Assembly: GCA_964471825.1 (NCBI GenBank)
Contig: CAYYKD010000001.1
Span: 65,136 to 129,135, forward strand
DNA from: an uncultured Spirochaetales bacterium
GTDB taxonomy: Bacteria > Spirochaetota > GWE2-31-10 > CAYYKD01
DNA length: 64,000 nt
Direction: 5' to 3'
Positions 2,811 through 60,798 of the stretch are shown one piece after another (positions within the stretch are counted from its first letter, which is position 1; every line of letters starts with the position of its first letter). A program made the position numbers and the translations under genes. The notes beneath the pieces are model-generated. The model searched no databases. It had not been told where the DNA came from and saw only the letters and a list, made by a program, of their open reading frames with translations.

Positions 2811-2884
2811 CCGTGGTCTCCGTATCTATAAAAATGGTTGAGGATACACCTCTCTATAAAATTCGGATAGTTCTGAAAATACTT

Positions 2885-2955
2885 AATAGAATTTATTATT
2901 TTTTACTTGATAGAATTTTTATTATTGATAGAATTTTTTACTTGATAGAATTTAT
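2885..2955. promoter_or_regulatory. Direct repeats (3-4 copies of TTGATAGAATTT) in the promoter region of the flgN-like/flgK/flgL unit
   Basis: Plus-strand copies: aatagaattt at 2885-2894, ttgatagaattt at 2907-2918, 2926-2937 and 2942-2953 (spacing 19 and 16 bp). Located between the PAP2 gene stop (2961) and the operon start (2810). Confidence 0.45.
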
Positions 2956-2960
2956 TTAGA

Positions 2961-3563: not shown

Positions 3564-3614
3564 TATCTGAGCAGTAATTAATTAAATATATTATACTGCT
3601 GTTTCAAAAATCAG

Positions 3615-3643
3615 TTGACTTTTTTTCAAAAAAAATGTATTTT
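3615..3643 (+). promoter_or_regulatory. Candidate sigma-70 promoter for rpmF-plsX (TTGACT-17-TATTTT)
   Basis: ttgact at 3615-3620, 17-nt spacer, tatttt at 3638-3643. About 68 nt upstream of the rpmF ATG (3712), which has a GAGGG RBS. Confidence 0.4.
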
Positions 3644-3711
3644 ACCCTCTAATTAACCTGACAGATCAGCTTATGATTCGCTGAAGTTATAATACATACG
3701 AGGGATTTAAA

Positions 3712-3897
3712 ATGGCAGTACCTAAGACAAAGATATCAAAATCAAAGACAAGAAGCCAGAGAAGCATCAATATGAAAATGGAGCTTCCACAGATGACTAA
3801 ATGTTCTGAATGTGGTGAGCTGACACTATCTCACAGAGTCTGTATACACTGTGGATACTACAGAGGCAGACCGGTTGTTGAGGTTAATAAGGCTTGA
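3712..3897 (+). CDS. rpmF: 50S ribosomal protein L32
   Basis: 61 aa. MAVPKTKISKSKTRSQR N-terminus plus C-x2-C...C-x2-C zinc-ribbon (CSECG...CIHCG), typical of bL32. Followed by plsX as in most bacteria. Confidence 0.9.
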   Translation: MAVPKTKISKSKTRSQRSINMKMELPQMTKCSECGELTLSHRVCIHCGYYRGRPVVEVNKA

Positions 3898-4946: not shown

Positions 4947-4974
4947 TTTAATTTCATTTCACACACAGACTTTA

Positions 4975-5069
4975 GAGGCTCTTGCAAAAATCCCTTCTGT
5001 TTTTTTCTTGATCTTTTATTTGTTAAACATGCTTCGCAAAAATTCAAAATTTATTTTTGCAAGAGCCTC
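4975..5069 (+). terminator. Palindromic terminator-like element downstream of plsX (17-bp perfect stem GAGGCTCTTGCAAAAAT, 61-nt loop, T-run); stem sequence shared with the element at 60845-60892
   Basis: gaggctcttgcaaaaat at 4975-4991 is the exact reverse complement of atttttgcaagagcctc at 5053-5069. Followed by cattttttat. Confidence 0.5.
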
Positions 5070-5169
5070 CATTTTTTATCAATTATCTCAAATTTACTAT
5101 AAATTACTTGTGTTTTTTTCAGTTTAGTGTATATTTATTTAAAATTATTTTAAAAAGGAATCATAATAA

Positions 5170-6660
5170 ATGAACAAATCTATCTTTATCTTCCCTAAGG
5201 TCTCCTCCTTGTTTTTATTATTAATTTTCTTCAGTTCTTGCGGGTTAGGAGATAATCCTAAGAATCAAAATGATTTTAATAAAAAAACTAGTATTTTACC
5301 ATCCGAATACTATGTAAAATTGCCTGCTTCAATTACAAATTCTACAAGATCTTCTTCAAATATGCAAAACTATGTAGCATCAATTACCGGAGTTATTGAT
5401 GATTCTAATAATTTTGATTACTCTATAATCAGATCAGCTATCCAGACCACTGAATGGGATAACATATTGAGAGCTATAGATATTGCTATCATTGATAATA
5501 TTTGTGAAAATTCTGATCTGACAGATGATGTTATAAGTGCCAGTTCTATTATTGTAACTGATTCTATGGTCGAAATAATGAAATCAATTACACCAAACAA
5601 TATATATAATAACATCTATGATGTAGTTAAAGGAAGGGAATATTTTATTTCTGACTTTGTTTATAAAAAATCAGATGATCCGATGTATGATAGAGTCTTT
5701 GAGTATCTTTATTTAAGAGATTATATTCCTGCCGAGCAAGATCCTGAATATACACCTGACTGGGAAAGTACTACTAAGTTATACTGGAAAGATGATAAGA
5801 GCTTATTTAAATCTTCATATTATTTTTTTAATCAAACTCACTTAAAATTATCAACTAATTATATATATGATGGAAACAATAAAAAATCAACATTAAACTA
5901 TCTACAATCAATGTACTCCTCGGCAGAACTACAAGAATCAAAACAGGATTCTCCTTTTGTTGAGTTTGCATCACTTACACTTATGGCAAATCCTAGTTCC
6001 AATAATAATGGAGTATTCTTTCTAACTGAAAGACATAGAGCTATTATGCTTCATAAATATGAATTTTACAGATCAACTTCAACGGGTTATTCGGATGACA
6101 ATGGCGGTATAATAAATAGTGAATGGATTAACTCCTTAGGTGATGACAGCTCAGTTGATATTTTTAAACATGGATTTGACGGTACCGGAAAAGTAAGTTA
6201 TTTTTCAGAACTTGTTAATACAGAGTGGGTACCTGGAATTGGTTATGAGAATATTGATGTAGATGCAGTATTTGATAATTATATAAATAAGTTTGAAGCT
6301 GTACAATCAACCATGACAGATGATTCATTAATTTCAGATAACTTTAAACTAGTAAATAGAGAAAAAGAGCTCTCTTATAATGATGCGAAAATTAACACAA
6401 ACTATTTTGTATCTTCTTCACTGTACACAGAAAGGGAAGTTGACTATTTAAACAAAGAGGTTGGGGATCTATCTATTTTTGAGGTGGGTGCAATATTCAA
6501 AAAATTAATTGGTGCCGGCAGATGTACGACAGAGGGCAAAATATCACTTCTGATTTTTACTCAAAATTTATCTGAGCTTAATGGGACAAGTTGCCATATA
6601 TACAAAAAAAATAGTGATGGTACTATAGAGTATATAGGTACCACTACCTTCTCCATGTAG
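5170..6660 (+). CDS. Hypothetical lipoprotein (496 aa)
   Basis: Signal peptide with lipobox-like FFSSCG (MNKSIFIFPKVSSLFLLLIFFSSCGLG). Asn/Tyr/Asp-rich mature part with no recognisable catalytic motif. Confidence 0.5.
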   Translation: MNKSIFIFPKVSSLFLLLIFFSSCGLGDNPKNQNDFNKKTSILPSEYYVKLPASITNSTRSSSNMQNYVASITGVIDDSNNFDYSIIRSAIQTTEWDNILRAIDIAIIDNICENSDLTDDVISASSIIVTDSMVEIMKSITPNNIYNNIYDVVKGREYFISDFVYKKSDDPMYDRVFEYLYLRDYIPAEQDPEYTPDWESTTKLYWKDDKSLFKSSYYFFNQTHLKLSTNYIYDGNNKKSTLNYLQSMYSSAELQESKQDSPFVEFASLTLMANPSSNNNGVFFLTERHRAIMLHKYEFYRSTSTGYSDDNGGIINSEWINSLGDDSSVDIFKHGFDGTGKVSYFSELVNTEWVPGIGYENIDVDAVFDNYINKFEAVQSTMTDDSLISDNFKLVNREKELSYNDAKINTNYFVSSSLYTEREVDYLNKEVGDLSIFEVGAIFKKLIGAGRCTTEGKISLLIFTQNLSELNGTSCHIYKKNSDGTIEYIGTTTFSM

Positions 6661-6759
6661 CGACTCTGTATAAAATTAACGAAATCGCCTGTACTAAAAT
6701 TACTGCCGCTTTTAATTTATCTTAAGGGTAATTAAACTTGGTAGTAAAATTTACAGGCG

Positions 6760-9666
6760 CTACTTCAATCCTATTGGAAAGGGCATACCAAAGATAAATG
6801 TTTTTGGGTACTGTTCTTCACCTTTATACTGCTTGGTTATCAGAGGGAAATATTCGTAGAGGTAATCATTAAGAGAGTTTACTGTAAGCTCCCCCTTATT
6901 ATTGAAGGCACCACCCTTTAAACCATCAATTATTGTATAGGTAAATGAACCATGACCGAGAGCTGTAAACTCCATTGCAAACTGGTCACTTCCTGTTGAG
7001 GCAAAGATCATAGTTCCGGAGGCCTTAGAGAGTTTTGCCAGTGCATTCTCCTCTGCGGCCCCCTTCATCGCAAACTGATCTGCAAATGCACCTGAATTGC
7101 AGGCATCAACAAACATAAGCTGCTTAGTTGCCCTTATCTCCTTTAGCTCGCCCCTCATCTCTGTACCTGATATAGAATTCCTCTGATTGAATGTAAGATT
7201 TGTTAGTTGTACCGTTCCATGAAGAACATAGAAAAACTCATTACCACCATCAGGCAGCTCCAGGGCTTGACCGTGTCCGGAATAATACAGAATAAAGACA
7301 TCCTCCGGCCGGATTGCCGACTTTACCTTTATGAATTCAGCGAGTACATTGTCCCGTGTCGCTTTTTCATCATAGATCTTCGTAACAAATACATTTCCAA
7401 ACAACTTCTCGGCATATGGAACTAAGGAGGAAACAACCCCTTCAATATCCGCAACACAGTAATTGAGATTATAGGATGAATTTTTATATTTATTTATCCC
7501 GACAGCAATAATATACATATCAGGTTTATTGTTAGTCTTTGGAATGTAACGGTAAGTAACGATATCTTCGACCCCCTCGGTACCCTCTAATGAATAGCCG
7601 ACAACCTTAAGCCGGTTCAGTCCGCTTGATAGCGTAACCTTAAAGCTCCTCTTGTAGGTTAAAATATCCGGTGTATCTACAGTATCTTCTATAATAAGCT
7701 TATCATTTGAAAACACCCTTATTCTTGCTATCCCTCCACCCGAGTTAGTTGCTCTGACCTCAATGTTAACAGAATTTTCGTTAACCGTGTAATCAGCAGT
7801 TTCAACAACTGTATTCTTCAAGCCTCTCGAACTGCCTGAACCTGTAAATAGTGAAACGACGGGCGGTAGTTTAAAGCCTGTGTTGATATCGTTTCTAGCA
7901 ACCTTACCAATATCCTCACTCAATGCTCTGGATACAATGTCAGGCCTATAGAATGTATCAAAGAACTTAGAGGCGGGTAAAAATAACGGCGATTTGCCCG
8001 ATTCCCTATTCAGATGCCATCCTATAAGTTCACTTGTCCCCCTAAAATCATAATACCCTTCGGGTGTCCATAGAATCCATTGTTTCTCATCGGGATGAAC
8101 AAATAGAGCGAGTAATTCCTTTCCATCAGAAACCCTATTCCACCTGATTGTACCGTCATCACAGCAATACACAAATATTCCCGTGTCCCCAACAATGTTA
8201 ACAGCCCATGCGTTTCCCGGTACAGGGATCTTCCATATTACAGTGCCATTATCGCTTAATGCATAGATATACCAATCTGCCCCCAGTATAATTGTTTTAC
8301 CATCACCTGAAACTGATGCGGATCTATTTGTTTCATATTTTTCCAGGAAATTCAGACTTTCTCCGTTTAGTTTAGGTTGATATGAATCAAGCCAATCAGT
8401 TATTTTAATGTTTTTAACAGAATCCCTTGCTGTATCGTAGATTATTTCAGACTGCCTCAACTCTCTTCTGACCAGATCAAACTGCATTTGATTTTTTCCA
8501 AATGGTCTGAAGGAGACAAGACTTCCGGTTTGATCAACTCCAAAATACTGGTATTGATAATTTCTAAAACTAATAATCTCACCTGATCTATAATAAACAA
8601 AGGTATTCTCCTTTGTAACCCTCGCAATGTCCGGGCGACCGCTGGTCGTTAAGAAGGATCCATCGCTTAAGGGTTTAATATCCATAATCAATCCTGTTCC
8701 TGCGGAAATATCCCTATATCGTGCCCGCCCTTGATTATCCCACCTGCGGATTACACTCCACCATATATTTTCTCTCAAGATCAGATGAAATCCGCCTGCA
8801 TACAGATATCTGCCATCCTGTGACCAGTTGACCATTAGAAACCTATTCTTGTCATCGGCACCTTTTGTGTTTGGTTCGTATAATAACTCAAGATCAGTTC
8901 CACTTAGCACCTGTATCTTTGTTGTATCATCGTGCCCTATAGCGATCCGGCTGGCATCCGGAGAAAATGCGATTGAGTAAGGTAGACTTCCGCCTGATGA
9001 TAGGATTTTTTTCTGTTCATTGAAATCGCTGTCGTAGAGTCTTATGTATCCATCATTACACACTGTAGCAAGCCGCCCATCATTTGAGAACGAGGTATTC
9101 TGCACACTCCCATTGTATCCCGGAAGAACCTTTAAAATTTTGCCGGCCCTTATGTCGATAATTACCACACCGGAAGTACCTCCGAGGGCGGCGGCAACAT
9201 AGTTTCCATCGTTTGAGTATTCAAGATCGTTTATAACATTTCCTAAACCCTTAATAACACCTGACAGCTCCCCATCAACTGTATTAAAAACATAGATAGC
9301 ATTATTCTGAGTCTCTCTATAGCTTGTCCAACCCCCTGTAATTATCTTACTGCCGTCAGGAGAGATAGCACATGAATATAACTTGCCCTCATTTCCATCC
9401 TCAATTGGGACTCTGAGAGTACGGATCAAAGCCCCATTTTCTGCAGACCAAAGTTTTACCGTTTTATCATCTGATGATGATACAAAATAGACACCATTTC
9501 GATCAACATCAATTCTTCTAATCATAGAAGTATGCATTTCTGTATTAAGCCTTAGTATCGGCTTGTCCTGAACAGGTATATCTGAGTATATTGGAATGTT
9601 TGAACTCATAAAAGTTATTGAAATCAGAACAGACAACATGGTTGTCAAAGTCTTATATTTATTCAT
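6760..9666 (-). CDS. Secreted WD40-repeat protein with C-terminal caspase-like (peptidase C14) domain
   Basis: 968 aa. N-terminal signal peptide. WD40-type repeats (SSSDDKTVKLWSAENG, CNDGYIRLYD, CCDDGTIRWNRVSDG). C-terminal domain carries the caspase His-Gly and Cys dyad motifs ILYYSGHGQ and MFVDACNSG after MYIIAVGINKY. Confidence 0.75.
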   Translation of the reverse strand: MNKYKTLTTMLSVLISITFMSSNIPIYSDIPVQDKPILRLNTEMHTSMIRRIDVDRNGVYFVSSSDDKTVKLWSAENGALIRTLRVPIEDGNEGKLYSCAISPDGSKIITGGWTSYRETQNNAIYVFNTVDGELSGVIKGLGNVINDLEYSNDGNYVAAALGGTSGVVIIDIRAGKILKVLPGYNGSVQNTSFSNDGRLATVCNDGYIRLYDSDFNEQKKILSSGGSLPYSIAFSPDASRIAIGHDDTTKIQVLSGTDLELLYEPNTKGADDKNRFLMVNWSQDGRYLYAGGFHLILRENIWWSVIRRWDNQGRARYRDISAGTGLIMDIKPLSDGSFLTTSGRPDIARVTKENTFVYYRSGEIISFRNYQYQYFGVDQTGSLVSFRPFGKNQMQFDLVRRELRQSEIIYDTARDSVKNIKITDWLDSYQPKLNGESLNFLEKYETNRSASVSGDGKTIILGADWYIYALSDNGTVIWKIPVPGNAWAVNIVGDTGIFVYCCDDGTIRWNRVSDGKELLALFVHPDEKQWILWTPEGYYDFRGTSELIGWHLNRESGKSPLFLPASKFFDTFYRPDIVSRALSEDIGKVARNDINTGFKLPPVVSLFTGSGSSRGLKNTVVETADYTVNENSVNIEVRATNSGGGIARIRVFSNDKLIIEDTVDTPDILTYKRSFKVTLSSGLNRLKVVGYSLEGTEGVEDIVTYRYIPKTNNKPDMYIIAVGINKYKNSSYNLNYCVADIEGVVSSLVPYAEKLFGNVFVTKIYDEKATRDNVLAEFIKVKSAIRPEDVFILYYSGHGQALELPDGGNEFFYVLHGTVQLTNLTFNQRNSISGTEMRGELKEIRATKQLMFVDACNSGAFADQFAMKGAAEENALAKLSKASGTMIFASTGSDQFAMEFTALGHGSFTYTIIDGLKGGAFNNKGELTVNSLNDYLYEYFPLITKQYKGEEQYPKTFIFGMPFPIGLK

Positions 9667-9769
9667 AAAACCCCCTCACTTTATGATCCACTATAATGGC
9701 TCTCATATACACCTCATTTTAGCATTATCGATTCTAATTTCAAACTATTTCTACTAAGAATATGCTGTT

Positions 9770-11152
9770 TTAAAGTTTTATTTTATAGGAAGTTATTTTT
9801 GAGTCGGATTCTATAGGGACTTGATCAAAACTATCAATCCTTGTAAACCTTACAAATGGCGAATCTGATAGGGTGTAGACATCCTCAGAGGTTGTGTTTG
9901 CCGCATAGTCAGTTAACAGACTGTCAGATGACCAACTCTCTACTGTATTTGAATGTCGGCGGCGATAGAGAAGTTTAGTGTATATTAGTTCAGATGTATC
10001 AAAGTAATTTCCCCGGACTATACATTCATCAGTGATATATCCATTATTTGAATACACCCTATAGTTTTTATAACCAAAATCAATCCCTGCTGTAACGATA
10101 GGATTTTGCGGGAAGTACCTTTTAAAAAATGATATGATAGAACCGCCGACATTACGGGAATAGCCTGAGAATACAGGTGTCTTCATCCCGTGGCTCTCTA
10201 ATTCTGCACAGATCGGATGGTCTGATATTAGTGGTGTTCTTCGCGATGACATTAGCCTGACCCTGGCTGTTATATCAAATAGCACTCGCCCGTTATACCT
10301 AAGACCAAGAAAAGGCAGATTAGAATAGTACTGTGCATCTAATGAAAAAATAAGATCAGGAATAATATTATTTCTAAGGAGAATCTTTGCTGAGGTATCA
10401 GTTGCAGCAATAAAAAGCCGTTCTCTTGATGATGATATCTCGGCGATGTTATCCTCCAGTGAAGGACCGCCACCTGTTACAAGAACTATTTTGTCGTTAC
10501 AGATCTCAATCTTTGATTGATCAAACCGCCCTTTTTTTACATCAATTAGATTTTTTCTAACAGATGCTTCCCAGATTTTATTTAATGATCGAATAGTCTT
10601 ATTATCCATAATTACCGGATTAACTATATGCTTTATCATTTTGATCAGTTCCAGTGTCTTTGCCGGATAGAGCCTCTCTAATACCGGATGAGTAACAATT
10701 CTATATGTTGTAGCACCGATTAGATAGGGGCTTTGAGCCAGGTCATCAATTGTTCCGACAGTTAGAGAAGTCCTACCGTTTAAAGAAGTTTTGTCTAACA
10801 TTTTCATCTGATCACTGTTATTTAAAATCACACTCTTCAACAGAGCCACATCTATCGGCACAACAAATGTCTTCTTACATAGCCTGACCCTATTATGCAG
10901 GTGATAACCCATTCCAAAACCAACCGCAATGATAAGCTCAACTTCACTATAGGGATCAGATTTTGCTATCTCATTAGACACAGAGTATTTTGAGTTAAGG
11001 CAATTATCATCCAGGATAGGCACAGAGTAACCATCCCTGGAAATCTCAAACCTTACTCTATCTAATGTCTTACTGCATAGAAGTTTTTCTTTTAAAGTGT
11101 CCGTGATAAATGAAAAATCACCTAAAAGATTTGTGTCTTTATCTGAGTTCAA
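9770..11152 (-). CDS. DUF115/Maf-like (motility accessory factor / MptE-like) protein, putative flagellin glycosylation-associated glycosyltransferase
   Basis: 460 aa. Contains IVLVTGGGPSLEDNIAEI (GPSL motif) followed by IPDLIFSLDAQ, matching the DUF115 signature blocks (GnGPSL...PDy..s.D). Confidence 0.55.
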   Translation of the reverse strand: MNSDKDTNLLGDFSFITDTLKEKLLCSKTLDRVRFEISRDGYSVPILDDNCLNSKYSVSNEIAKSDPYSEVELIIAVGFGMGYHLHNRVRLCKKTFVVPIDVALLKSVILNNSDQMKMLDKTSLNGRTSLTVGTIDDLAQSPYLIGATTYRIVTHPVLERLYPAKTLELIKMIKHIVNPVIMDNKTIRSLNKIWEASVRKNLIDVKKGRFDQSKIEICNDKIVLVTGGGPSLEDNIAEISSSRERLFIAATDTSAKILLRNNIIPDLIFSLDAQYYSNLPFLGLRYNGRVLFDITARVRLMSSRRTPLISDHPICAELESHGMKTPVFSGYSRNVGGSIISFFKRYFPQNPIVTAGIDFGYKNYRVYSNNGYITDECIVRGNYFDTSELIYTKLLYRRRHSNTVESWSSDSLLTDYAANTTSEDVYTLSDSPFVRFTRIDSFDQVPIESDSKITSYKIKL

Positions 11153-12041: not shown

Positions 12042-14180
12042 TTAATTTTCTATCATTGTAATATTTGAATTGCTGTCTATATATATCAAATTTTTCACGC
12101 CTTTCGATTTAATCATTTGTAAGACATCATCGATCGATTCTTTAATGTTCTCATCTTTGTCTTTTAACTGATAAAAATCGTAACCGTATCCCAGATATGG
12201 CTTTTCATTTTTATATGGCAATCCATCAATCAAAGCAATACCTGTTAATGCAGGGATTAAAAAAGGGATCGATTTTGCTTCGAGAAGACTCCAGTACGGA
12301 TTATTTCTTTCAATGTAGATGTAAAGATTTGATTTTTGCTTTAGATTGAATGCATCGGTATAATTTTTGATAGTCATCAATAAACTATAGCTTGGTAAAT
12401 TCAACATGCCGTCTCTCTTAACTGACATTGCTTTTATTAACAAAGGTAAACTTTTTTGTTGCAGAGATTTTTTTATTGAATCCTTAAGTGATATAACACC
12501 TACTTTTTCAATTATGCTTTGTTTTAAATTAGAAGAAGTATGATTTAGTGCAAAAATCTCGTTATTTATGTTATATATTGAAAAAAACAATGCTAATGCC
12601 AACAAAAAAAGATAGATTTGAGAAAATCTTAAACTGCTTCGAGATATTACCATGGTGTTTTTGTCAACCTGAAATTTTATCAGGCTCTCAAGTTTAAATG
12701 ACATTGCAATCAATAACGAAAGCGAGAACCATATTTGAAAATCAGAAAAATATCCGGCACTACCCCCACCAATTTTTAATACCAGGCCAGGTAACAATCC
12801 AACAGAAACAAAGATTAATAAGATCTCACAATCAAGAAATGATTTTTTTAACACCACTTCCTTTAATGAAACCATTGTAGTTTTTTTTCTGATATACAAA
12901 TAGAGAATTGATCCAAAGCAGTACATAAGCAAGAAAATAACCGGATTAACAGAGGTGTATCTGCGGATAAAACTGAATAATTCAAAGACTTTTTCATCAG
13001 CTAAAATCCACAACTTATATGTAAAATACGCAGTTAACAAATTAATTAATAGTGCGACTATATTAATAAAATCTGTATACATCTTAAGACGAATGAAAAC
13101 CCATAAAATTACAGGTATCATAATAATCAGAAGTGATATCTTAGATATTCCAATACAAAAAAGCAGGATAGGAAAAACAATTAGAATTGATATATAATAG
13201 AATAGGTTCTTTTTCCTTAGAATAATATTATCATATATAACTACTGAAATACTTAGAAATAGAAATGTTAATATTAATGAAATAAGATATGACTCGCTTC
13301 GTAAAATTGAGTCCCATCGGAGTGCAGATTTATTGAGTATTAATTTTGGCAATATCCCGGCAAAACCGGCAATTAATAACATAAGCATGACAACTATGTT
13401 CCTTTTTTTATCAGAATAAAATCGGTCAATTATATTAAATGTAAAAATAAAAAAAGACTTAATAAATAGTGGAATAAATAGTATTGGATAAACTACATTA
13501 TAAAAGAACAAGGCATCACAGTTAATTATATTAGATATCATTGCAAAGAGATAGTGACTTCCAATGTGATATTGGAGTGGAACAACTCCATCTAGACCTG
13601 TACTCGGTATTCCATATGTTTTAATCATATTCATTATTGAAGAATGAAAAACTGTATCAATATGAAATTTTCCGAGTGCAATCTTTTCAAGATACAATAT
13701 ATTATGATAATTACCACCCCATATTACAGCTGCCATAAACACACCAAATAAAGTCATGATTAACGAAACAATCACGGTATAGAAGATGTTTCCATTTGAC
13801 ATATAGTAAAAAAGATAAACAATAATTGGTATGAACGAAATTACAGCGAAGATAGTTAGTATTATGTTTAAGATGGGGTTGTTTATATAACCCGCTACAA
13901 ATAACAGTAAAATAAATATAAATGTAAACAGCCCGGCTTTATTTATATGACTATGCTTTCTTAATATTACTATAGAAAACTCAATGACATTTATTGCAAA
14001 CAACGAAAGTACAATAGAAACAAGCACCTGTCTAAAATTATCAATATATCCGATTTTCAATTTCAAATAAATAAAAACGAGAATACAGGCAATTAAACTC
14101 GGAAATAAATTTGTCAGAAGTAACCTTTTTTTAAAACTGTCTGGTGAATTATGTTCTAAATTATTCATCTTTAACCTCAT
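12042..14180 (-). CDS. Large polytopic membrane protein (712 aa, more than 12 predicted TM helices, C-terminal ~200-aa soluble domain), function unknown
   Basis: Very hydrophobic Ile/Leu/Phe-rich sequence. No transporter signature recognised. Heads a same-strand run: membrane protein, truA, Maf-like, WD40-caspase. Confidence 0.5.
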   Translation of the reverse strand: MRLKMNNLEHNSPDSFKKRLLLTNLFPSLIACILVFIYLKLKIGYIDNFRQVLVSIVLSLFAINVIEFSIVILRKHSHINKAGLFTFIFILLLFVAGYINNPILNIILTIFAVISFIPIIVYLFYYMSNGNIFYTVIVSLIMTLFGVFMAAVIWGGNYHNILYLEKIALGKFHIDTVFHSSIMNMIKTYGIPSTGLDGVVPLQYHIGSHYLFAMISNIINCDALFFYNVVYPILFIPLFIKSFFIFTFNIIDRFYSDKKRNIVVMLMLLIAGFAGILPKLILNKSALRWDSILRSESYLISLILTFLFLSISVVIYDNIILRKKNLFYYISILIVFPILLFCIGISKISLLIIMIPVILWVFIRLKMYTDFINIVALLINLLTAYFTYKLWILADEKVFELFSFIRRYTSVNPVIFLLMYCFGSILYLYIRKKTTMVSLKEVVLKKSFLDCEILLIFVSVGLLPGLVLKIGGGSAGYFSDFQIWFSLSLLIAMSFKLESLIKFQVDKNTMVISRSSLRFSQIYLFLLALALFFSIYNINNEIFALNHTSSNLKQSIIEKVGVISLKDSIKKSLQQKSLPLLIKAMSVKRDGMLNLPSYSLLMTIKNYTDAFNLKQKSNLYIYIERNNPYWSLLEAKSIPFLIPALTGIALIDGLPYKNEKPYLGYGYDFYQLKDKDENIKESIDDVLQMIKSKGVKNLIYIDSNSNITMIEN

Positions 14181-18810: not shown

Positions 18811-21465
18811 TTGAACAGGACTGTTTTATTACTAATATGCCGCTCTTTTCTAAAAGGGGCGGCATTAATTATTCTAGAGGTGGCAGTAACACCTCTATTT
18901 TTATCACAGGTTTCATACTCAAAACTCCCCTCAGTCTATATAGGGATAGCAATTTTCACAATAATCTCAGGTTTGCTGTTTAGGAAGTTTGACAAAAGCA
19001 CCTCATACAGCAAACTTATATCATACACGCTATTCATTATGATATTCGTTACAGTTATTGCTATTGTTCCGGTATTGATCTCTATCAATCTCCTAACAGT
19101 ATCAATACTAATGATAGTAAAGGCCTTTTTTTGGATACTTGTAAATATTGAATTCTGGAGTGTTGCACAGGCTGTTTTAAACATAAGAGAGGGTAAAAAA
19201 TACTTTGCCCTGGTAAGCTCCGGTGAAATAGCAGCTACAATTATTATCGGTACAGTATTACTTCTTTTTTTAAATAACTCAAGTGTCTTTTTATTACTTC
19301 TTATTGTAATAGTAATCCTACTTTTCTATCTTATATCATTTATAATGATTAGGACATTAAATAAACCCTCTTTTAGAGATGATACCAACGCAATTAATGA
19401 TACCGCAAAAGTCAAAAGATCCCTATCAAAGTTATTAAACAATAAATTTATTATATTTTATTTTTTTGTGGCATTTATAAGTTCATTAGGATTCTATCTC
19501 GTGGATTTTTTATTTCTAAATCAGGCACAGAAATTTATTGCTGATGAGCTAATATTAAGAAGGTTCTTCAGTCTATTCTTTATGATTCTAGGGCTTGTGA
19601 ATTTGGTTGGAACCCTTTTTGTGTCCGGTAAGATAATCGTAAGATTGGGTATCAAAGGAATTGTAATCTTGTTGCCATTTGCAATAACACTATTAACAGG
19701 TGCATCAATTACTGCATTGTTTTGTAATCTCACATTTTTACTTTTTATTCTCGCTGTATCGTCAAAAGGGTTTGACGATGTTATAAGGGTCAATTTCGAG
19801 TACCCGTCACAAAAAATTATGCTTCAAATTGTTCCGCCAAATGAACGGTTTAGGCTCTTAGCAATTCAGGAAACACTCGTTGAGCCGATAGCTATCGGGC
19901 TTTCAGGAATTATACTGCTTCTATTATCGACCAAGACTTATTTAGTTTATATACTTCTATTAACAATAGCCGGAGTCTGGCTTAGTTTGGCATTCCTACT
20001 TAGAAAACAATACACTGTTTTTCTGATTTCATCATATAATAAAAAGAGATTTGATCCCGATCATCTTGAGTCATACGACCCCTCGATCCTTCAAATCATA
20101 GATAGAGGACTTAACAGTAAATATCCTGACGAGATTGTCTATGCAGTTAACCTTGCACAGTCCGTCTGTATAAATAAACCAGGTATGATAATAAAAAGTA
20201 AAAACCTACAGGATATATCAGTAGAACTATGGTTTGAAAATATAATAAGGCAGTGCATTAAGTCAGAAAACAAGATTCTTGTAAAATTTATCCTCGAAAA
20301 AATTAGAACGATAAAACCAAATCAGATCGAGAAAGATTTAAAAGATATTCTATCAAATCCGGCTTTTAATAACAGCCCGATTATATCAGAATGTGCTTTT
20401 ATATTGACATCTGTCTATAATGTATATGATGGATTGGATCAGATCAATACAGATGTAAAATTCAATTACTTAAACGCAGGACTTCTTGCAGGAGCATTTT
20501 GCTGTTCAGATTCGCATATCAGAGATAGGGCAACTGCCGATATATTAAGCCTGAGCGATAATGACGAACTATTTTTAAATATATTAGAAAAAATCTCGAT
20601 CAATAATAAATATAGCAACATATTTGACAACTATCTGATTGCCTACATAGAATCTAAAAATAAGAACCATGTAAGACAGGCAATAAGAATTGGTGGTTTA
20701 GTATCAATTAACTATCTCTATGATAAATTCGAAAAAATCGCTGATGATGTCAAACTCTACAAACCGCTTATACGGGCAGTCTCCGGTAATCAGATCAAGC
20801 TGGAGGCTCTGTTTAAACGGCTTCATGGATTAAACGATATTCTACATTCAAGGAAGGAATATGCTCTGTGTAAAATAGCCGGTTACATAGAGACCAAGAT
20901 CATCCAAACTATACTTGTTTTGATGTCATCAAGTGTTGGACTTTTAAATCGATATTTTTTATATGAATCATTTAGAAAAGTTGTTATACGGGATGGTCTT
21001 ATTGTTTCTAAAAGTGAAGTGTATAGATTAATCTCCGATGAAGTTAAAACAGGCATTTCAAAGCAAACTTTCTTACTAAGACTTAAAAATCTCAATCTTG
21101 ATTATCAAGTTCATGACTTACTAATCAACTCATTTCAATCGGAAATTGCACTTCACAAAAGGTTCGTATTTCAGCTTCTCTCAGTATTGTATAATCCGAA
21201 CACAATTATGAAAATAGAGAACGAGTTTTTTTATAGACACTCAAATAGACAGGCACTTGCGATAGAATCCCTTGAGTCATTGTTGGCCTCTGATTTAAAA
21301 AAGGAAATAATTCCATTTATTGAAGGGACGAATCCAAATGAAGTGGGAAACCACTTTGACCTTACAAGTTCGGTTGATTTGATAAATCATCTGGATAAAT
21401 TTTTAAGTGAAACAGATATTTCACCGCTTACAGTTTTGCTGATAGAAAGAATTATAGAAAAATAA
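18811..21465 (+). CDS. Fusion protein: N-terminal ~12-TM transporter-like domain (MFS/TLC nucleotide-translocase-like) plus C-terminal ~470-aa helical repeat (HEAT/ARM-like) domain
   Basis: 884 aa. First ~410 aa are hydrophobic with regularly spaced TM helices. The remainder is a soluble Leu/Ile-rich helical repeat region. Immediately followed by a cNMP-binding protein gene. Confidence 0.45.
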   Translation: MNRTVLLLICRSFLKGAALIILEVAVTPLFLSQVSYSKLPSVYIGIAIFTIISGLLFRKFDKSTSYSKLISYTLFIMIFVTVIAIVPVLISINLLTVSILMIVKAFFWILVNIEFWSVAQAVLNIREGKKYFALVSSGEIAATIIIGTVLLLFLNNSSVFLLLLIVIVILLFYLISFIMIRTLNKPSFRDDTNAINDTAKVKRSLSKLLNNKFIIFYFFVAFISSLGFYLVDFLFLNQAQKFIADELILRRFFSLFFMILGLVNLVGTLFVSGKIIVRLGIKGIVILLPFAITLLTGASITALFCNLTFLLFILAVSSKGFDDVIRVNFEYPSQKIMLQIVPPNERFRLLAIQETLVEPIAIGLSGIILLLLSTKTYLVYILLLTIAGVWLSLAFLLRKQYTVFLISSYNKKRFDPDHLESYDPSILQIIDRGLNSKYPDEIVYAVNLAQSVCINKPGMIIKSKNLQDISVELWFENIIRQCIKSENKILVKFILEKIRTIKPNQIEKDLKDILSNPAFNNSPIISECAFILTSVYNVYDGLDQINTDVKFNYLNAGLLAGAFCCSDSHIRDRATADILSLSDNDELFLNILEKISINNKYSNIFDNYLIAYIESKNKNHVRQAIRIGGLVSINYLYDKFEKIADDVKLYKPLIRAVSGNQIKLEALFKRLHGLNDILHSRKEYALCKIAGYIETKIIQTILVLMSSSVGLLNRYFLYESFRKVVIRDGLIVSKSEVYRLISDEVKTGISKQTFLLRLKNLNLDYQVHDLLINSFQSEIALHKRFVFQLLSVLYNPNTIMKIENEFFYRHSNRQALAIESLESLLASDLKKEIIPFIEGTNPNEVGNHFDLTSSVDLINHLDKFLSETDISPLTVLLIERIIEK

Positions 21466-54037: not shown

Positions 54038-54850
54038 TTAATAATATGTATATTTATAAAGAGACTTTGTATACAAAGAGCCGTCGCCTCTGTATTTCGC
54101 CTCTTCAATCAAATTCCTATTAGCATCATACTTATAGATATTTTTGCTATTTAACGAGCCATCAGTTCTGAAACTTGCATCTTCTACCTTATTTCCTATT
54201 GCATCATACTTGTAAATCTCTTTTGAAAATATTGAACCGTCATTTTGATATTTAATCTTTTCAATTTTATATCCTTTAATATCATACTTATAGGCCTCTC
54301 TGGAAAAGAATGAACCTTTGGAGCCGGTTACAACTTCTTCAATCATATTTCTGTTATCATCATACTTATATGTGTTTTTACTTTTCAAATAATCGTCGTA
54401 TCGATATTTGGCTTCCTCAATCATATTTCCACCGGCATCATATGTAAAAGTGGATTTATACCACAAAGCACCATCTGGGCCATGGGTAGCCTTATCACTC
54501 ATTTTACCACTATCATCATACCTATATATAATTTTAGATTCCATAGAACCATCTGATCGAAACATCCCCTTTTCAATAATATTTCCTTTAGCATCATACT
54601 TATAAATTCTTTTTCCCTCTAAGGAGTCGTCGGCTTCATAGAATCCCTCTTCAATCAAATTTCCACTTTGGTCATATTTATATGAGGTTTTCCAATTCAA
54701 CACTTCTACATTTTTTCCAGAATCAAACACTATATCATATTTAAACTCAGTTTTTTCTTTTACTTTAAGCGTGTCTGTGTTTACCTGCTGACTGGATAGC
54801 ACTGTCAAAAATGCAAACAAAAAACAAAACAAAAATAACAATCTCTTCAT
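54038..54850 (-). CDS. Secreted MORN-variant / YwqK-like repeat protein (~8 tandem ~23-aa repeats YKYDxxGNxIEExxYxxDGS)
   Basis: 270 aa. Signal peptide MKRLLFLFCFLFAFLTVLS. Repeats such as KRIYKYDAKGNIIEKGMFRSDGS, SKIIYRYDDSGKMSDKATHGPDGA, KEIYKYDAIGNKVEDASFRTDGS. Confidence 0.6.
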   Translation of the reverse strand: MKRLLFLFCFLFAFLTVLSSQQVNTDTLKVKEKTEFKYDIVFDSGKNVEVLNWKTSYKYDQSGNLIEEGFYEADDSLEGKRIYKYDAKGNIIEKGMFRSDGSMESKIIYRYDDSGKMSDKATHGPDGALWYKSTFTYDAGGNMIEEAKYRYDDYLKSKNTYKYDDNRNMIEEVVTGSKGSFFSREAYKYDIKGYKIEKIKYQNDGSIFSKEIYKYDAIGNKVEDASFRTDGSLNSKNIYKYDANRNLIEEAKYRGDGSLYTKSLYKYTYY

Positions 54851-54937
54851 ATAAACTTCCTTTAATATAGTATTAAATAATTTAGTATTAAATCACTTCT
54901 TTAATATCATATCATTTTAGAATATTTGTCAAATACA

Positions 54938-54983
54938 TAGTTAGAATTTTTTAGTTAGAATTTTTTAATAGTTAGAATTTTTT
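54938..54983. repeat. Tandem AT-rich repeat (AGTTAGAATTTTTT x3) in the promoter region of the YwqK-like gene, immediately downstream of the Toprim-protein gene
   Basis: tagttagaatttttt at 54938-54952, agttagaatttttt at 54953-54966, aatagttagaatttttt at 54967-54983. Followed by gtataat on the plus strand. Confidence 0.6.
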
Positions 54984-55054
54984 GTATAATTTATATTTCG
55001 TGTTCCATTCTGATTCTATACTTTATTCTATAAATATCGGCTTGAGTTTTCCTA

Positions 55055-57325
55055 TCATTTAAAAATATTTTCAAAGACAGCTCTTACAAATTGTACAGGT
55101 ATCAGCTCCTGTTCAAGACGATTCTTCTGAGGATAGCTGTTTAATTTCTCAAATAAGTCCAGTTCATCTGAGGTTAAATTTTCCGGTTGTGCGGCTTTGA
55201 CAACTTCACCATCCGTAACAAACTCATAGTGTCTTTCACATGTAACTCTATCCATCATAATGCTCTCCATCTGCGGAAAGTTCCCTCTCAAACCGGATAA
55301 GATCATAAATCCATGAGGATCTATATCACCCCAATAAATAATCCGCTTATCTCTAAACCACTCGGCATCCCTAATTAGTCCGACCCCAAACCCTTTCCCA
55401 AAGATAGCAAGTGTGTTTTCTATTTGCGGCATAGTAAGAAAGTTATAGATATTTGTATAGCTTGTTTTATTTTCAAGGATTATAATTCTCTTTACCGGTA
55501 ATTTCAATTTATTAAAATCGGAGACCTTTATCGATATGTCGCTTATCCCCGAAAAATATTTTAGTGCAATCTCGTTATCAAGGATATTTAACCTTATTAA
55601 TGGTTCATTGAACTTAAGGCCATACCTTTTTTCAAATACCCTTTCATTTGTCAAAGTTGAGTCCGAAATGATATCAAGGAATTCTTTCACTAGGTTCATG
55701 TTGCGTTCAATAAACTTAGTATCAACCTCTATCGGCAACTCTCTTATATACAGCTGCGGCATTGGATTTGATTTAAAGTATTTTAAAACAGAAAATATTT
55801 TTTCTTTAATCTCAGATATATAACAAATATCAGCTATATTTACGGCAAGTATTTTAACAATATCAGTTATATGCGACTCATCGAGGTTGTTCTCAAGTTG
55901 CTCATGAAGGGTTTTTAGTTTATCAGAGCTGTCCTCAATCTTTTTCTTCTCAACCTTATGAACTTCCAATTCCTTGGCGTAGAGTTCCCAATTGATTTCA
56001 TCAAAACTATCAAAACTCTTTAGGAAGAAAAGATTTCGCTCTTTCTCCTCACAGGCCGATTTATACTGATTTGATAGATTCAGCTTATCTTTTTGCACCA
56101 ATATTTCTTCTCTGCAACGAGATATCCTCTCTTCATATGTACTAATCTTCTTTCTGTTATCCCAACCGAGAATGTAACTGCGCCTGTCATCCTTCTCATG
56201 TCTGACACCGGCTGTCTTAATAAGCCCCGATTTAGTTACAGCAAAAGGGTATTTATTAAACTCATCAGCACTTTCACAACATGCAAATCCAAATCGTGAA
56301 TTTATCTCATTATATATCCAGTTATAGAAAGGGGTGTCCTCTTTGATTGCAAGCCTATTTATAACTGACATCTTATTACCATCTATTTGTATCTTTGGGG
56401 ATTTAGAATCCTCGATTCTGTAAAATACAACTCTACTCTTTAAATCAGTTTTATTGATAAAGTCGTTTATACGATCGTACAACTTTTCCGGCACCAACAT
56501 ACTCAGACCGAATGAACGCAAAAGCCTTTCAATTGCCGGCTCCCAGTCCTCAAACCCCTCTTTTACCTTCACCAATTCAGCAACAAACGGGATCTCAATC
56601 TCATTGACACCGGTACCATCAGCGATAATTTTTCTGATTTTACTATTCTCTAACGGTATCTGGCTATTTCGAGACATTAGGTGTTTAAGCTCATCCTCGT
56701 CATTATAAAGCCTTTCATTGAGATCGCGGATAACAATCCCTGTTTGTATTATGCCCTCATTAACCTCGGTTATCTTTATGGACAATTCCGACCTTAAACT
56801 CTCAATATTTAGAATATTTCTGTAGAATAACTCCTCTGAACATTCACTCTGTAGTTCAAGAGCCTTAATAATTGCCTTGTAGTTATCATATTTTCTAAGT
56901 CTATCTTGCTTCTTCTCAGAGCAAACTTTAATCTGATAATCTATCTCCATTAGCCGTTTCGAGTCCTTATCATTAGCTATCGCTTTTATCAGTGATGTCT
57001 TATCATTATCTAACCGTTCAATCAGCTCCCGGCTCTCTTGAAGTTTGTTTGTAAAGACTCCGTAGTTTGCAGTGAGTTCATTTGTTTTTTTCTTGTAAAG
57101 TTCAAGCCGGATTTTATTAAAATACAACAATAGCCCGTCAGAATATCTCTTATTATCCTCGATTTTTTGAATCAATCTTCCATACTCATCTGAGGAATTA
57201 ACCAATGGCTCAAGCGTCTTCAACTGTTCCCTTGCTCTCTCAACAGACTCATGTGCTCGGTTTAAATTATCAAAGTTCTTCAATAGAAGTGTGATTTCAT
57301 CCCGAATCTCCTCTTTCTCAAGCAT
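55055..57325 (-). CDS. Coiled-coil protein with C-terminal Toprim domain (TopoVI-A/Spo11/JetD-MksG DUF2220-like), no ATPase motifs
   Basis: 756 aa. C-terminal ~190 aa has KRIIILENKTSYTNI (conserved Glu) and DKRIIYWGDIDPHGFMIL (DxD metal-binding motif) in JetD/TopoVI-A-like spacing. N-terminal ~560 aa is helical/coiled-coil with an SMC-arm-like segment FAELVKVKEGFEDWEPAIERLLRSFGLSMLVPE. No Walker A or Walker B. Confidence 0.6.
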   Translation of the reverse strand: MLEKEEIRDEITLLLKNFDNLNRAHESVERAREQLKTLEPLVNSSDEYGRLIQKIEDNKRYSDGLLLYFNKIRLELYKKKTNELTANYGVFTNKLQESRELIERLDNDKTSLIKAIANDKDSKRLMEIDYQIKVCSEKKQDRLRKYDNYKAIIKALELQSECSEELFYRNILNIESLRSELSIKITEVNEGIIQTGIVIRDLNERLYNDEDELKHLMSRNSQIPLENSKIRKIIADGTGVNEIEIPFVAELVKVKEGFEDWEPAIERLLRSFGLSMLVPEKLYDRINDFINKTDLKSRVVFYRIEDSKSPKIQIDGNKMSVINRLAIKEDTPFYNWIYNEINSRFGFACCESADEFNKYPFAVTKSGLIKTAGVRHEKDDRRSYILGWDNRKKISTYEERISRCREEILVQKDKLNLSNQYKSACEEKERNLFFLKSFDSFDEINWELYAKELEVHKVEKKKIEDSSDKLKTLHEQLENNLDESHITDIVKILAVNIADICYISEIKEKIFSVLKYFKSNPMPQLYIRELPIEVDTKFIERNMNLVKEFLDIISDSTLTNERVFEKRYGLKFNEPLIRLNILDNEIALKYFSGISDISIKVSDFNKLKLPVKRIIILENKTSYTNIYNFLTMPQIENTLAIFGKGFGVGLIRDAEWFRDKRIIYWGDIDPHGFMILSGLRGNFPQMESIMMDRVTCERHYEFVTDGEVVKAAQPENLTSDELDLFEKLNSYPQKNRLEQELIPVQFVRAVFENIFK

Positions 57326-57413
57326 ATTTTCCCTGACAAAGTCTGTAAAATTGCCAATCTGTTTTAAGGAAACAGTATGAAAAAATAGTTCTATCCCTTT
57401 TTAGAGCGATGTT

Positions 57414-58727
57414 CTAATATTCGATCAACTCTAACAAACCTTTTTTTACAGGGTAACTATTAATAAGTTCTCCCAGAGCGATCTGTTCTTTTTGTGTAAG
57501 AGCTTTTTCGATATTCGCAATCAATTCACCCTTATCAACGAATATTTGCCCATATACAAACGCCGCATCAAAGTCTTCAACTTCACTTGCAATCTCTTTT
57601 ATATTAAAGACAACCTTTTCAGGTACTCTATAGAATAGTCTTGAAACAACCGATTCTATCTCAGGCTTATCATTTATCTGTACAAATTTCCTTTCATTAG
57701 CGAGGTTTTGGTTTTTCGTTAGCTTTATTGCCCTCGACTCGATCTCTTTAATGATATCAAGCACCCTTCTGTTGCTATCAATTGCCCGCTCATCAATAAA
57801 CCTTGCCAACTGCTCGATCAGGATAAATATTGTTTTATTAACCTTACTGCCGGATTCTGTCAAACTATATTTTAATCGCCTAATAAAAGTATCATCAGAC
57901 AATCCTTTAACCTCGTCCATTTCTATAAGTTGTCTGATAAGATAATCAAGCTCATCCAGCCTGGTCTGTGATAGAAGAAGCTCCCAGAATGAACGGAAAC
58001 TCCGCCCCTGATCTGTTTCCCATATAGACCCCTGCATATTAAAAAAGTTGTCAACAACATCCCCTTTAGCGACAGAAACATCAGAGAGTTTTACCCTTAT
58101 CATTCTATCAAGATCTCGGAAGTTATACTCTACCTGCCTAAAATCACCTATCAATCTCCTTGCTGTATCGGTCAACTCAAAGAATCTTTCCTTAATTTGA
58201 GTATTATCAAGCGTCTCTATAACCCCGGCATCTATCTTGTCAATTTCTGCCTGTAATTTTAATTTCTCTTCATGCAGCTCCTTTAGACGGACTTTAGGAT
58301 CACTGGAACTTTTATACACAATCTCCCGCAATAGATCAAAGATCTTAATCATACGGGACTCAGTGCCTACAAAATCCCTCTCCTTAAGATCATCAATCCA
58401 CTCAATTGCCTTCTCCATGGCCGGTGTCATTTCATACAGCGGCTCATCCCCTGATTCTCCATAATACTTTCTTAAGATACCGTCATCCGCCCACTGAGTA
58501 AGATAGGATTCCGGTGACAATGGATACGACTCGTCGCTGTAGTTCTGATTGAGATAGTATATGTAATCTGTGAGTTTAACGGTAATATCTTTATGTTGTA
58601 TTACAGAACGGTTATCGTTCTTAAAAACGCCATATAGAAACCCCGCAACAAATGGGAGAGTCTCTTTGCTTAATATCTTAAGAGTTGTATTATTATTTTT
58701 GTAGTATCGTATATCCTCAAAGTTCAT
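57414..58727 (-). CDS. Helical protein, partner of the Toprim protein; N-terminal region resembles my recollection of the JetA/DUF3375 (MksF kleisin-like) family
   Basis: 437 aa. No nucleotide-binding motifs. YLTQWADDGILRKYYGESGDEPLYEMTPAMEKAIEWIDDL and DFRQVEYNFRDLDRMIR resemble DUF3375-type blocks from memory. 88-bp gap to the downstream Toprim gene on the same strand. Confidence 0.4.
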   Translation of the reverse strand: MNFEDIRYYKNNNTTLKILSKETLPFVAGFLYGVFKNDNRSVIQHKDITVKLTDYIYYLNQNYSDESYPLSPESYLTQWADDGILRKYYGESGDEPLYEMTPAMEKAIEWIDDLKERDFVGTESRMIKIFDLLREIVYKSSSDPKVRLKELHEEKLKLQAEIDKIDAGVIETLDNTQIKERFFELTDTARRLIGDFRQVEYNFRDLDRMIRVKLSDVSVAKGDVVDNFFNMQGSIWETDQGRSFRSFWELLLSQTRLDELDYLIRQLIEMDEVKGLSDDTFIRRLKYSLTESGSKVNKTIFILIEQLARFIDERAIDSNRRVLDIIKEIESRAIKLTKNQNLANERKFVQINDKPEIESVVSRLFYRVPEKVVFNIKEIASEVEDFDAAFVYGQIFVDKGELIANIEKALTQKEQIALGELINSYPVKKGLLELIEY

Positions 58728-58911
58728 AAATCAGTAATAATATATTTTTTCATAAATATCAATAAATCCTAATCATCTTTCTTATTCATCTATTTGTCGA
58801 ATTACTCACATCACCGGCTATAGTGCGGATTTTCTATAAACACAAAAAAAAACAATTGTTTATTTTTATTTATTATTATATAAATCTTAATAATTTTTTC
58901 GGGAGAGAATA

Positions 58912-60183
58912 ATGCTTGACATAAAATTTATTAAAGATAATGCAGAGACAGTTAAAGATAATATTGCAAAGCGATTTGTAAAGGCCGATGTAGACAAACT
59001 TCTTGAGATCTACTCACAGAGAAATGACATAATCACTAAGGCTGATGCTCTAAGGCAGAAAAGAAATGAGAATGCCGCATCGCTAAAATCTCAAAATGAC
59101 TACCAAAAAAGAGTTTCACTTATCGAAGAGGGTAAAAGGCTAAAAGATGAGCTATATACCTATGAAGATAAAGAGATCAAAATAAATAAACTTTTTATCG
59201 AAGAGATGTATAAAATTCCCAATATGACCCACCCTGACACGCCTATTGGACCTGAAGAAAAGGACAGTAAGGAATTAAGAAAAGTTGGAGCAATCCCTGA
59301 GTTTGACTTTGAAGTTAAAGATCACACTGTTCTTGGTAAGGAACTTGATATTATTGATTTTGAATCAGGTGCAAAAGTATCAGGACAGAAATTCTATTAT
59401 CTAAAAAATGAAGGTGCATTATTAGAGTTGGCACTTATTCAGTTTGCTATAGGTCTCCTAGTGTCTAAAGGATTTACCCCGGTTTTAACACCCGATCTTG
59501 CAAGAGAGTCTATCCTTGAGGGGATTGGCTTTAACCCGCGAGGAAATGAAACTAATGTCTATATGGTAGAAAATACTGATCTCTGTCTTGTGGGTACAGC
59601 AGAGATAACACTTGGCGGAATGTATTCAAACACAGTTATTGATAGAGAAAAGCTGCCTATAAAGATGGTTGGACTAAGCCATTGTTTTAGAACCGAGGCA
59701 GGAGCAGCAGGCAAAGCACAGAAAGGACTCTATAGAGTTCATCAGTTTAGTAAGGTTGAAATGTTTGCAATTTCATTACCTGAGGACGCAGCAGGGATTC
59801 ATGAAGAACTTAGAGAGATCGAAGAGGAGATTGTGTCTAAACTTGGTATACCATATAGAGTACTTGACATAGCGTCAGGTGATCTCGGAAATCCAGCCTA
59901 CAAGAAATACGATCTTGAAGCATGGATGCCGGGCAAAGGTGAATATGGCGAGATTACATCAACTTCTAACTGTACAGATTACCAATCAAGAAGACTTAAT
60001 GTAAAATACAAGACTGAGAACGGCAAGGCTGACTACACCAGCATGTTAAATGGCACTGCAGTTGCGATACCACGAATGATTATTTCTATTATTGAGAATT
60101 TTCAGACTAAAGATGGTGAAGTTATAATCCCTGAAGCACTACACCCGTATATGTTTGGAATAAAGAAGATAAGCAAAAAGTAA
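58912..60183 (+). CDS. serS: Seryl-tRNA synthetase
   Basis: 423 aa. N-terminal coiled-coil arm. Class II motifs (GLYRVHQFSKVEMF, TSTSNCTDYQSRRLN, NGTAVAIPR). Confidence 0.9.
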   Translation: MLDIKFIKDNAETVKDNIAKRFVKADVDKLLEIYSQRNDIITKADALRQKRNENAASLKSQNDYQKRVSLIEEGKRLKDELYTYEDKEIKINKLFIEEMYKIPNMTHPDTPIGPEEKDSKELRKVGAIPEFDFEVKDHTVLGKELDIIDFESGAKVSGQKFYYLKNEGALLELALIQFAIGLLVSKGFTPVLTPDLARESILEGIGFNPRGNETNVYMVENTDLCLVGTAEITLGGMYSNTVIDREKLPIKMVGLSHCFRTEAGAAGKAQKGLYRVHQFSKVEMFAISLPEDAAGIHEELREIEEEIVSKLGIPYRVLDIASGDLGNPAYKKYDLEAWMPGKGEYGEITSTSNCTDYQSRRLNVKYKTENGKADYTSMLNGTAVAIPRMIISIIENFQTKDGEVIIPEALHPYMFGIKKISKK

Positions 60184-60267: not shown

Positions 60268-60798
60268 ATGAGGGATTGCGAACAGAATTATGCTCCTACC
60301 AAATTTTATGCTCTTGAAGAAACTGATCAGTATAGAAGATATGTTGTACTCTGTTCAGAAATTACCGTAATGAAGAAGTTACTATTAAGGATGCTTGATT
60401 TTTTTAATGCAGATCTTGTAGTTATGATAAAAACAGTTGTAGCTTACGATGAAATATCCAAGGAATACGACTGGGATTATTACACAGGAGATTCTAACAG
60501 AGATCGTGTACTTGACTCAATAAATATGTTTGAGGATTATATTTTTCATGATCCCTCTCACCAATTACTGGTAAGAGACAAGAGAAGCCATGACTATTTT
60601 ACATTTGATGAACATGGCACATTATTTATTTACACAGATAGAAATGTTGAATATATTCTAGAACAGCATAGCATCCCTTTTGAAAATAATCACAATCTAA
60701 AGTGGGAATGCGGTCAAATAAAATATGTGATGGGTTCACTATGTGAAAACTTTGAAAAACTAAAAAATTATTTAGGTCTATCGATTAGAAAAACTTAG
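60268..60798 (+). CDS. Hypothetical cytoplasmic protein (176 aa), no recognisable domain
   Basis: ORF with GGGAGGG RBS (60253-60259). Aromatic/acidic composition. Followed by a strong hairpin terminator. Confidence 0.45.
   Translation: MRDCEQNYAPTKFYALEETDQYRRYVVLCSEITVMKKLLLRMLDFFNADLVVMIKTVVAYDEISKEYDWDYYTGDSNRDRVLDSINMFEDYIFHDPSHQLLVRDKRSHDYFTFDEHGTLFIYTDRNVEYILEQHSIPFENNHNLKWECGQIKYVMGSLCENFEKLKNYLGLSIRKT

Follow-up and report, generated by a model that had tools for sequence, protein, structure and literature searches.

Type I Wadjet (JetABCD; also MksBEFG or EptABCD) is a four-subunit anti-plasmid system of the structural maintenance of chromosomes (SMC) type, marked by ATP-dependent cleavage of small circular DNA or plasmid restriction. 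JetABC alone and JetD alone are inactive; cleavage needs all four subunits, ATP and the JetC ATPase (10.1101/2022.10.04.510915). JetD is composed of aCAP and, on a flexible linker, a Toprim domain; aCAP docks JetD on the larynx of the JetC head, a contact whose disruption kills restriction in vivo (10.1101/2023.11.03.565488). In Clostridium cellulovorans, spontaneous loss of jetABCD raises plasmid uptake ~1e5-fold (PMC12287153). Here we analysed a 64,000-nucleotide stretch of an uncultured Spirochaetales bacterium (contig CAYYKD010000001.1, positions 65,136 to 129,135; hereafter the window), which carries a 756-aa open reading frame (ORF) combining coiled-coil and Toprim sequence. A first-pass annotation made from the letters alone had taken this ORF for a possible minimal, ATPase-free module or a new family. 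We conclude instead, with a probability of about 0.88, that the locus is a type I Wadjet (jetABCD) operon that was inactivated recently and is now a pseudogene remnant.

The remnant contains two ORFs, the 756-aa one and, upstream of it across a gap of 88 nt, one of 437 aa (Table 1). The longer ORF was confirmed as described in the first-pass annotation, including the helical character of its N-terminal part. Homology divides it into two pieces, so that we refer to it as the fusion: residues 1-481 correspond to JetC 227-713, the middle of the SMC subunit, and residues ~488-756 to JetD ~128-393. Indeed, the PADLOC JetC1 profile matched fusion residues 1-483 (profile positions 232-718 of 1123, E 6.8e-119) and the JetD1 profile residues 503-755 (positions 135-380 of 382, E 3e-89). 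Comparison by blastp with the nearest intact operon, L001, gave the same division, with fusion residues 1-481 aligned to JetC 227-716 and residues 492-751 to JetD 128-388. These matches are far above chance; what fails is the reading of the ORF as a stand-alone system. The surviving pieces keep the canonical gene order on a single strand: jetA, jetC (middle part) and jetD. A pattern scan detected neither Walker A nor Walker B in the fusion ORF or its 437-aa neighbour, bearing out the first-pass remark that no ATPase motif is present in either, and NCBIfam gave no useful match for the two. PADLOC assigned only JetC and JetD models to the fusion, and membership of the OLD/Gabija GajA/PARIS AriB class was rejected; a single marginal GajA match (E 0.0031) falls on the 437-aa protein.

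Table 1 Features of the Wadjet remnant, in window coordinates.
Feature	Position	Strand	Description	Basis
Locus of Wadjet remnant	55055-58727	minus	3.67 kb, two ORFs	
jetA', truncated kleisin gene	57414..58727	minus	437 aa = JetA residues 1-437 of ~478-481	Pfam, PADLOC, blastp
Premature TAG stop in jetA	57414..57416	minus	codon 438	tblastn and MAFFT read-through
Residual jetA codons	57384..57413	minus	~10 codons past the stop, now untranslated	alignment
Junction 1, out of frame	57384..57403	.	scar of ~1.28 kb deletion; exact base ambiguous within ~20 nt	
Residual jetC codons	57326..57400	minus	25 codons (reference residues 202-226), upstream of fusion ATG	tblastn, MAFFT
Fusion ORF	55055..57325	minus	756 aa	ORF list, confirmed
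JetC-derived part	55883..57325	minus	fusion residues 1-481 = JetC 227-713; ascending arm helix, hinge region, start of descending helix	
Junction 2, in frame	55858..55882	.	fusion residues ~482-490; scar of ~1.57 kb deletion	
JetD-derived part	55055..55857	minus	~JetD 128-393; end of aCAP/DUF3322 and complete Toprim, then stop codon	

The JetC-derived part is 51% identical to P0002, the JetC of L001, by blastp; it matches the JetC chains 8dk2_C and 8as8_A in the PDB, and a MAFFT alignment with four reference JetC proteins supports the assignment. Both ATPase head lobes are absent, the reference JetC having its GNIGSGKS at residue 45. JetC sequence survives at the locus from residue 202 to residue 713, of which only 227-713 can be translated. 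The segment FEDWEPAIERLLRSFGLSMLVPE (fusion residues 258-280), which had been likened to SMC/JetC arm sequence, aligns with a conserved 'W.GAIERA..S..LRILVP' block of the solved JetC chains; it is JetC sequence, as proposed, and, given its position close to the centre of JetC, probably belongs to the hinge or a hinge-proximal region rather than to plain arm. In SMC proteins the arm folds back within the chain into an antiparallel coiled coil. Of its two helices, the remnant retains all of the ascending one and only ~60-70 residues of the descending one, and since the latter is mostly deleted, most of the heptad-rich helix, ~230 residues of the ascending arm, would by this architecture be left without its antiparallel partner.

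The start of the fusion ORF also lies within JetC. Its ATG at 57325 corresponds to a conserved internal methionine of JetC ('RENMLEKE'; the motif 'R[ED]NMLEK' occurs in three of the four references and the Met in all four), and because this residue is internal in intact JetC, the alignment indicates that the ATG is not a native start. Consistently, JetC similarity continues upstream of it, the window reading KGIELFFHTVSLKQIGNFTDFVRENM in the jetC frame against KALDLFYHTVSLKQIGNLTEFVRENM in the reference. These 25 stranded codons have an in-frame stop directly before them and no start codon inside; 19 of the 25 residues are identical to those of the L001 JetC (KGIELFFHTVSLKQIGNFTDFVREN versus KALDLFYHTVSLKQIGNLTEFVREN), and three further JetC proteins align as well.

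Two hallmark elements had led the first-pass annotation to propose a JetD/MksG-like Toprim at the C-terminus, and this proved right. The Pfam family JetD_C (PF09983) matched fusion residues 569-749 (E 3.7e-44), and a phmmer search of all PDB chains returned the JetD chains 8q72_M and 7til_A and the MksG chain 8b7f_A (E 1e-15 to 1e-16). In the alignments, E618 (in IIILENKTSY; window 55472-55474) coincides with the mutated residue of the chain named JetD(E248A), 8q72_M, and GDIDPHG (D667 and D669; window 55319-55327) with GDMDSWG of the solved chain. An AlphaFold2 model of fusion residues 483-756, built with 40 JetD sequences, had a mean pLDDT (predicted local distance difference test) of 91.2, and its best folds in the PDB by Foldseek, the comparison that the first-pass annotation had suggested, were MksG 8b7f_A (E 2e-16), JetD 7til, topoisomerase VI-A and Spo11. 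All 23 invariant columns of the 40-sequence JetD alignment are kept. By sequence and model, the C-terminal part is thus a JetD-type Toprim with its catalytic Glu and DxD intact. What differs from JetD and MksG (7TIL, 8Q72 chain M, 8B7F) is the region before this shared fold. The N-terminal arm/CAP region of JetD docks on the JetC head and touches DNA; in the fusion it is truncated and JetC arm and hinge sequence stands in its place. Most of aCAP (DUF3322) is gone, and only the last quarter of that profile matches (fusion residues 508-551, positions 146-190 of 190).

The 437-aa ORF, counted in the first-pass annotation as the one helical partner of the fusion, encodes a truncated JetA. Pfam DUF3375 matched its product with E 7e-108 and PADLOC JetA1 over profile positions 1-437 of 480 (E 8e-141); it is 65% identical to the JetA of L001, with residues 1-437 aligned to JetA 1-436 by blastp, and lacks the last ~40 residues. 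The stop that ends it stands where three of the four reference JetA proteins have a Tyr, encoded in L001 by TAT. Read through this codon, the jetA frame gives LLELIEY*NIALKRDRTI, against LLELLEYYNIAHIREKTI in the reference (tblastn, MAFFT), and the alignment to the JetA proteins of L001, L085 and L086 runs on through 'NIAL...' to ~57384.

Beyond the nonsense codon, the locus bears the scars of two deletions. At junction 1, similarity to JetA stops at ~57384 and that to JetC sets in at 57400, as judged by tblastn, MAFFT and inspection of the DNA; lost between them are jetA codons ~448-478, the entire jetB gene and jetC codons 1-201, which include the Walker A lobe of the head. At junction 2, jetC codon ~713 is joined to jetD codon ~125, with loss of jetC codons ~714-1117 and jetD codons 1-~125; fusion residues ~478-492 read LENNLDESHITDIVKILAV across this join, and JetD matches in the exhaustive search begin at fusion residue ~483-488, equivalent to JetD ~119-128. 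The sizes agree: the intact L001 operon spans 6.55 kb, and its difference of 2.88 kb from the remnant fits both deletions together. The missing sequence has not moved elsewhere in the window, as a tblastn search of the 64 kb with the L001 JetB (PF13835/MksE, ~200 aa) gave a best E of 3.3 and no jetB, and no JetB or JetC-head fragment was found by tblastn in the same 64 kb. In L001, the two endpoints of the junction 1 deletion (jetA codons ~443-446 and jetC codons ~200-203) fall within similar A-rich strings, AGAGAAAAGACA and TCAGAAAAAGCA, and the window reads CTAAAAAGGGATAG at the scar. Judged from L001 only, this hints that junction 1 may stem from a deletion at microhomology of the 'GAAAAAG' type.

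The relatives of the fusion are ordinary Wadjet proteins. Among 5.8 billion protein clusters its nearest homologue was P0002, a JetC of normal length (1117 aa), whose operon (L001/L002) has the canonical arrangement jetA(478)-jetB(198)-jetC(1117)-jetD(393). Three further close JetC matches (P0003, P0010 and P0009) are likewise encoded in complete jetABCD operons whose subunits match in size; in the four reference operons (L001, L085, L086 and L087) jetA spans 478-481, jetB 198-201, jetC 1111-1125 and jetD 391-396 aa. The first-pass annotation had foreseen that homologues confined to full jetABCD operons would mark the locus as a decayed Wadjet, and all four nearest relatives indeed lie in such operons. 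The cluster containing the fusion has one member, from one sample. The best 120 of the 1668 matches past the E-value cut-off were ordinary JetC proteins, mostly ~1120 aa with a few shorter, and covered 62-75% of the fusion. When all 1.84 billion cluster representatives were searched by phmmer with a junction-spanning query (fusion residues 400-756), no other junction-spanning protein appeared among the best 150 matches, which besides the query itself were ordinary JetD proteins of at most 441 aa. Nearly all listed JetD matches start at or just past the junction (JetD ~119-150), and one starts earlier, at query position 42. Homologous pairs without SMC genes, whose occurrence in other genomes had been raised as a question, were likewise absent among the matches listed in these large protein collections.

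Two complete jetABCD operons were found on other contigs of the same metagenome sample (JGI 3300020048), L001/L002 at 988-7536 and L086 at 3972-10523 of their respective sequences. L001 has a GC content of 0.364, against 0.358 for the window, and an IS200-type Y1 transposase adjoins its jetA; L086 adjoins HicB and RelE toxin-antitoxin genes.

Set beside type I Wadjet, the three pieces that survive are clearly homologous to JetA, the middle of JetC, and JetD, so the derivation from Wadjet suggested in the first-pass annotation holds. The departures lie in what is missing: jetB is absent; JetA, normally ~480 aa, stops early; JetC, normally ~1100 aa, lacks residues 1-201 and ~714-1117 and with them the heads, Walker A/B, the larynx and most of the descending arm; the first ~125 residues of JetD are gone; and the JetC and JetD sequences are fused in one frame. 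As Wadjet can do without neither ATP nor any of its four subunits, the remnant is very likely non-functional, and the locus presumably no longer restricts plasmids. The scars, the lost jetB and JetC head, and an architecture found once speak against the minimal ATPase-free module or new family that had been proposed. The 756-aa protein is most likely a young pseudogene product rather than a new ATPase-free defence module, and the system is one already known, type I Wadjet in a decayed state.

Relative to the ancestral arrangement of four genes, the locus carries three lesions. In the order of the operon, they are a nonsense change from Tyr to TAG in codon 438 of jetA; an out-of-frame deletion of ~1.28 kb from the jetA 3' end to jetC codon 201; and an in-frame deletion of ~1.57 kb removing the last ~400 jetC codons (descending arm, larynx and Walker B/signature lobe) and the first ~125 jetD codons. 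The second deletion keeps the frame, and the first start past the stop at junction 1 is the internal JetC Met; hence an ORF finder returns a 756-aa 'arm + Toprim' protein. Any fusion polypeptide made would lack the ATPase motor, the kite subunit, the kleisin C-terminus and the surfaces by which JetD and JetC dock.

Several observations weigh against this explanation. One is the clean state of the reading frame. The 781 jetC- and jetD-derived codons contain no stop, where ~61 would be expected at random and the other forward frames hold 59 and 120. The JetD part has no mismatch at any of the 26 columns conserved to 95% or more, and all catalytic and family-invariant residues of its Toprim are kept. 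Of 86 such columns, the JetC part departs from the consensus at 10, and the intact JetC proteins P0002, P0003 and P0010 do so at 9-12. A weak Shine-Dalgarno-like AGGGA stands 4 nt upstream of the fusion ATG. Furthermore, no closely related genome was found that carries an intact allele at this site, so that the ancestral state is deduced from homologues of 51-65% identity: with the fusion protein as query, a search of 185,579 species genomes gave no confirmed close jet relative, and in none of 80 loci examined for synteny around serS did jet genes or the window's other neighbours lie beside serS, the best SerRS relatives belonging to Spirochaetota metagenome-assembled genomes at no more than 66% identity. 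Relaxed constraint on the JetC part was considered, given that it looked more deviant than the median homologue, and was rejected; since intact close relatives deviate equally, the higher deviation is lineage-specific and not decay. The absence of stops and of any surplus of changes at conserved positions fits a young remnant, left by a recent loss. The same lack of decay would fit purifying selection on a functional fusion equally well. A promoter and terminator scan of 54800-59000 scored no better than shuffled sequence.

Selection of this kind is what the foremost alternative supposes, namely that the fusion is a functional new protein in which the JetC hinge dimerises two Toprims, acting as an ATP-independent nuclease or as a dominant-negative or regulatory factor, possibly together with the truncated JetA. 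It would amount to the minimal Wadjet-derived module raised in the first-pass annotation. SMC hinges dimerise, and the hinge region is kept. The 756-codon frame is intact in a genome of 36% GC, junction 2 is in frame, the weak AGGGA precedes the ATG, E618, D667 and D669 survive with all invariant JetD_C residues, and conserved JetC positions carry no more substitutions than in intact relatives. We nevertheless regard this explanation as very unlikely. The architecture is a singleton among ~15 billion proteins, with no second instance, even a distant one, among the matches listed; its ATG is a conserved internal JetC Met that leaves 25 JetC codons stranded upstream; in the gene of its supposed partner, JetA, a nonsense codon is followed by codons that can still be read; JetD shows no activity unless JetABC and ATP are present, and the aCAP domain that would dock it is largely deleted here; and ~230 residues of arm helix would lack their partner, as argued above. 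The more specific proposal of a fusion whose expression starts at the internal Met and which has taken on a new role, either as a hinge-dimerised, ATP-independent Toprim nuclease or as a decoy against other Wadjet complexes, seems to us less probable still; if true, it would be a one-step natural case of a defence nuclease freed from its SMC motor. A functional fusion of either sort would mean that a JetD Toprim can act without an SMC motor, contrary to current biochemistry.

Least probable of all is that the deletions are an assembly artefact, or that they mark a minor allele of a mixed population in which an intact jetABCD predominates. In favour of this, the sequence is metagenomic, all records (JGI, ENA and NCBI) go back to one sample, and that sample holds two other, intact jetABCD operons. 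Against it, the same 4 kb with both junctions and the TAG is base-identical in two independent assemblies, in a 133,774-bp JGI contig and in an ENA MEGAHIT k141 contig; the deleted segments are no repeats of a kind that would collapse in assembly; the sample's other jet operons, at 36-65% protein identity, are too divergent for chimeric joins; and the nonsense codon is an independent third lesion. A small residual doubt remains.

The Wadjet remnant lies in an ordinary chromosome of an uncultured Spirochaetota member whose SerRS is at most 66% identical to that of any species representative. Around it are flagellar genes (FlgK, FlhA, FlgE and FliK-like), a hybrid histidine kinase and serS; neither a tRNA nor an Rfam family nor any mobile-element gene turned up close to it. 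Directly downstream, at 54038-54850 on the minus strand, a 270-aa protein has a signal-peptide-like N-terminus and RHS/YD repeats (PF05593, E 4.8e-11) and is unusually short for its kind. Between serS and a PpiC-like gene, 60268-60798 on the plus strand is a 176-aa ORF without a Pfam match that is a called gene in both public assemblies. Elsewhere in the window, a 968-aa protein (6760-9666, minus strand) joins N-terminal WD40 beta-propeller repeats to a C-terminal caspase-like Peptidase_C14 domain (E 8.5e-14), and two large proteins, of 712 aa (12042-14180, minus strand) and 884 aa (18811-21465, plus strand), had no Pfam match at E <= 1e-4.

The locus invites caution in the search for new defence genes, as an in-frame deletion in a defence operon can yield a long, clean ORF that mimics a new domain architecture. 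Such a mimic is exposed by reading past the flanking stops and aligning to intact relatives. Natural chromosomal deletion of jet genes is also known from Clostridium cellulovorans; there 23 kb with the whole operon were lost, whereas here two small internal deletions and a nonsense mutation left a remnant with scars. The rise in plasmid uptake that follows loss of jetABCD offers a plausible selective reason for decay in this lineage too, and the loss may have been neutral, or favoured by allowing plasmid uptake. The remnant would then be a small example of defence-system turnover, a Wadjet caught shortly after its inactivation in an uncultured spirochaete.

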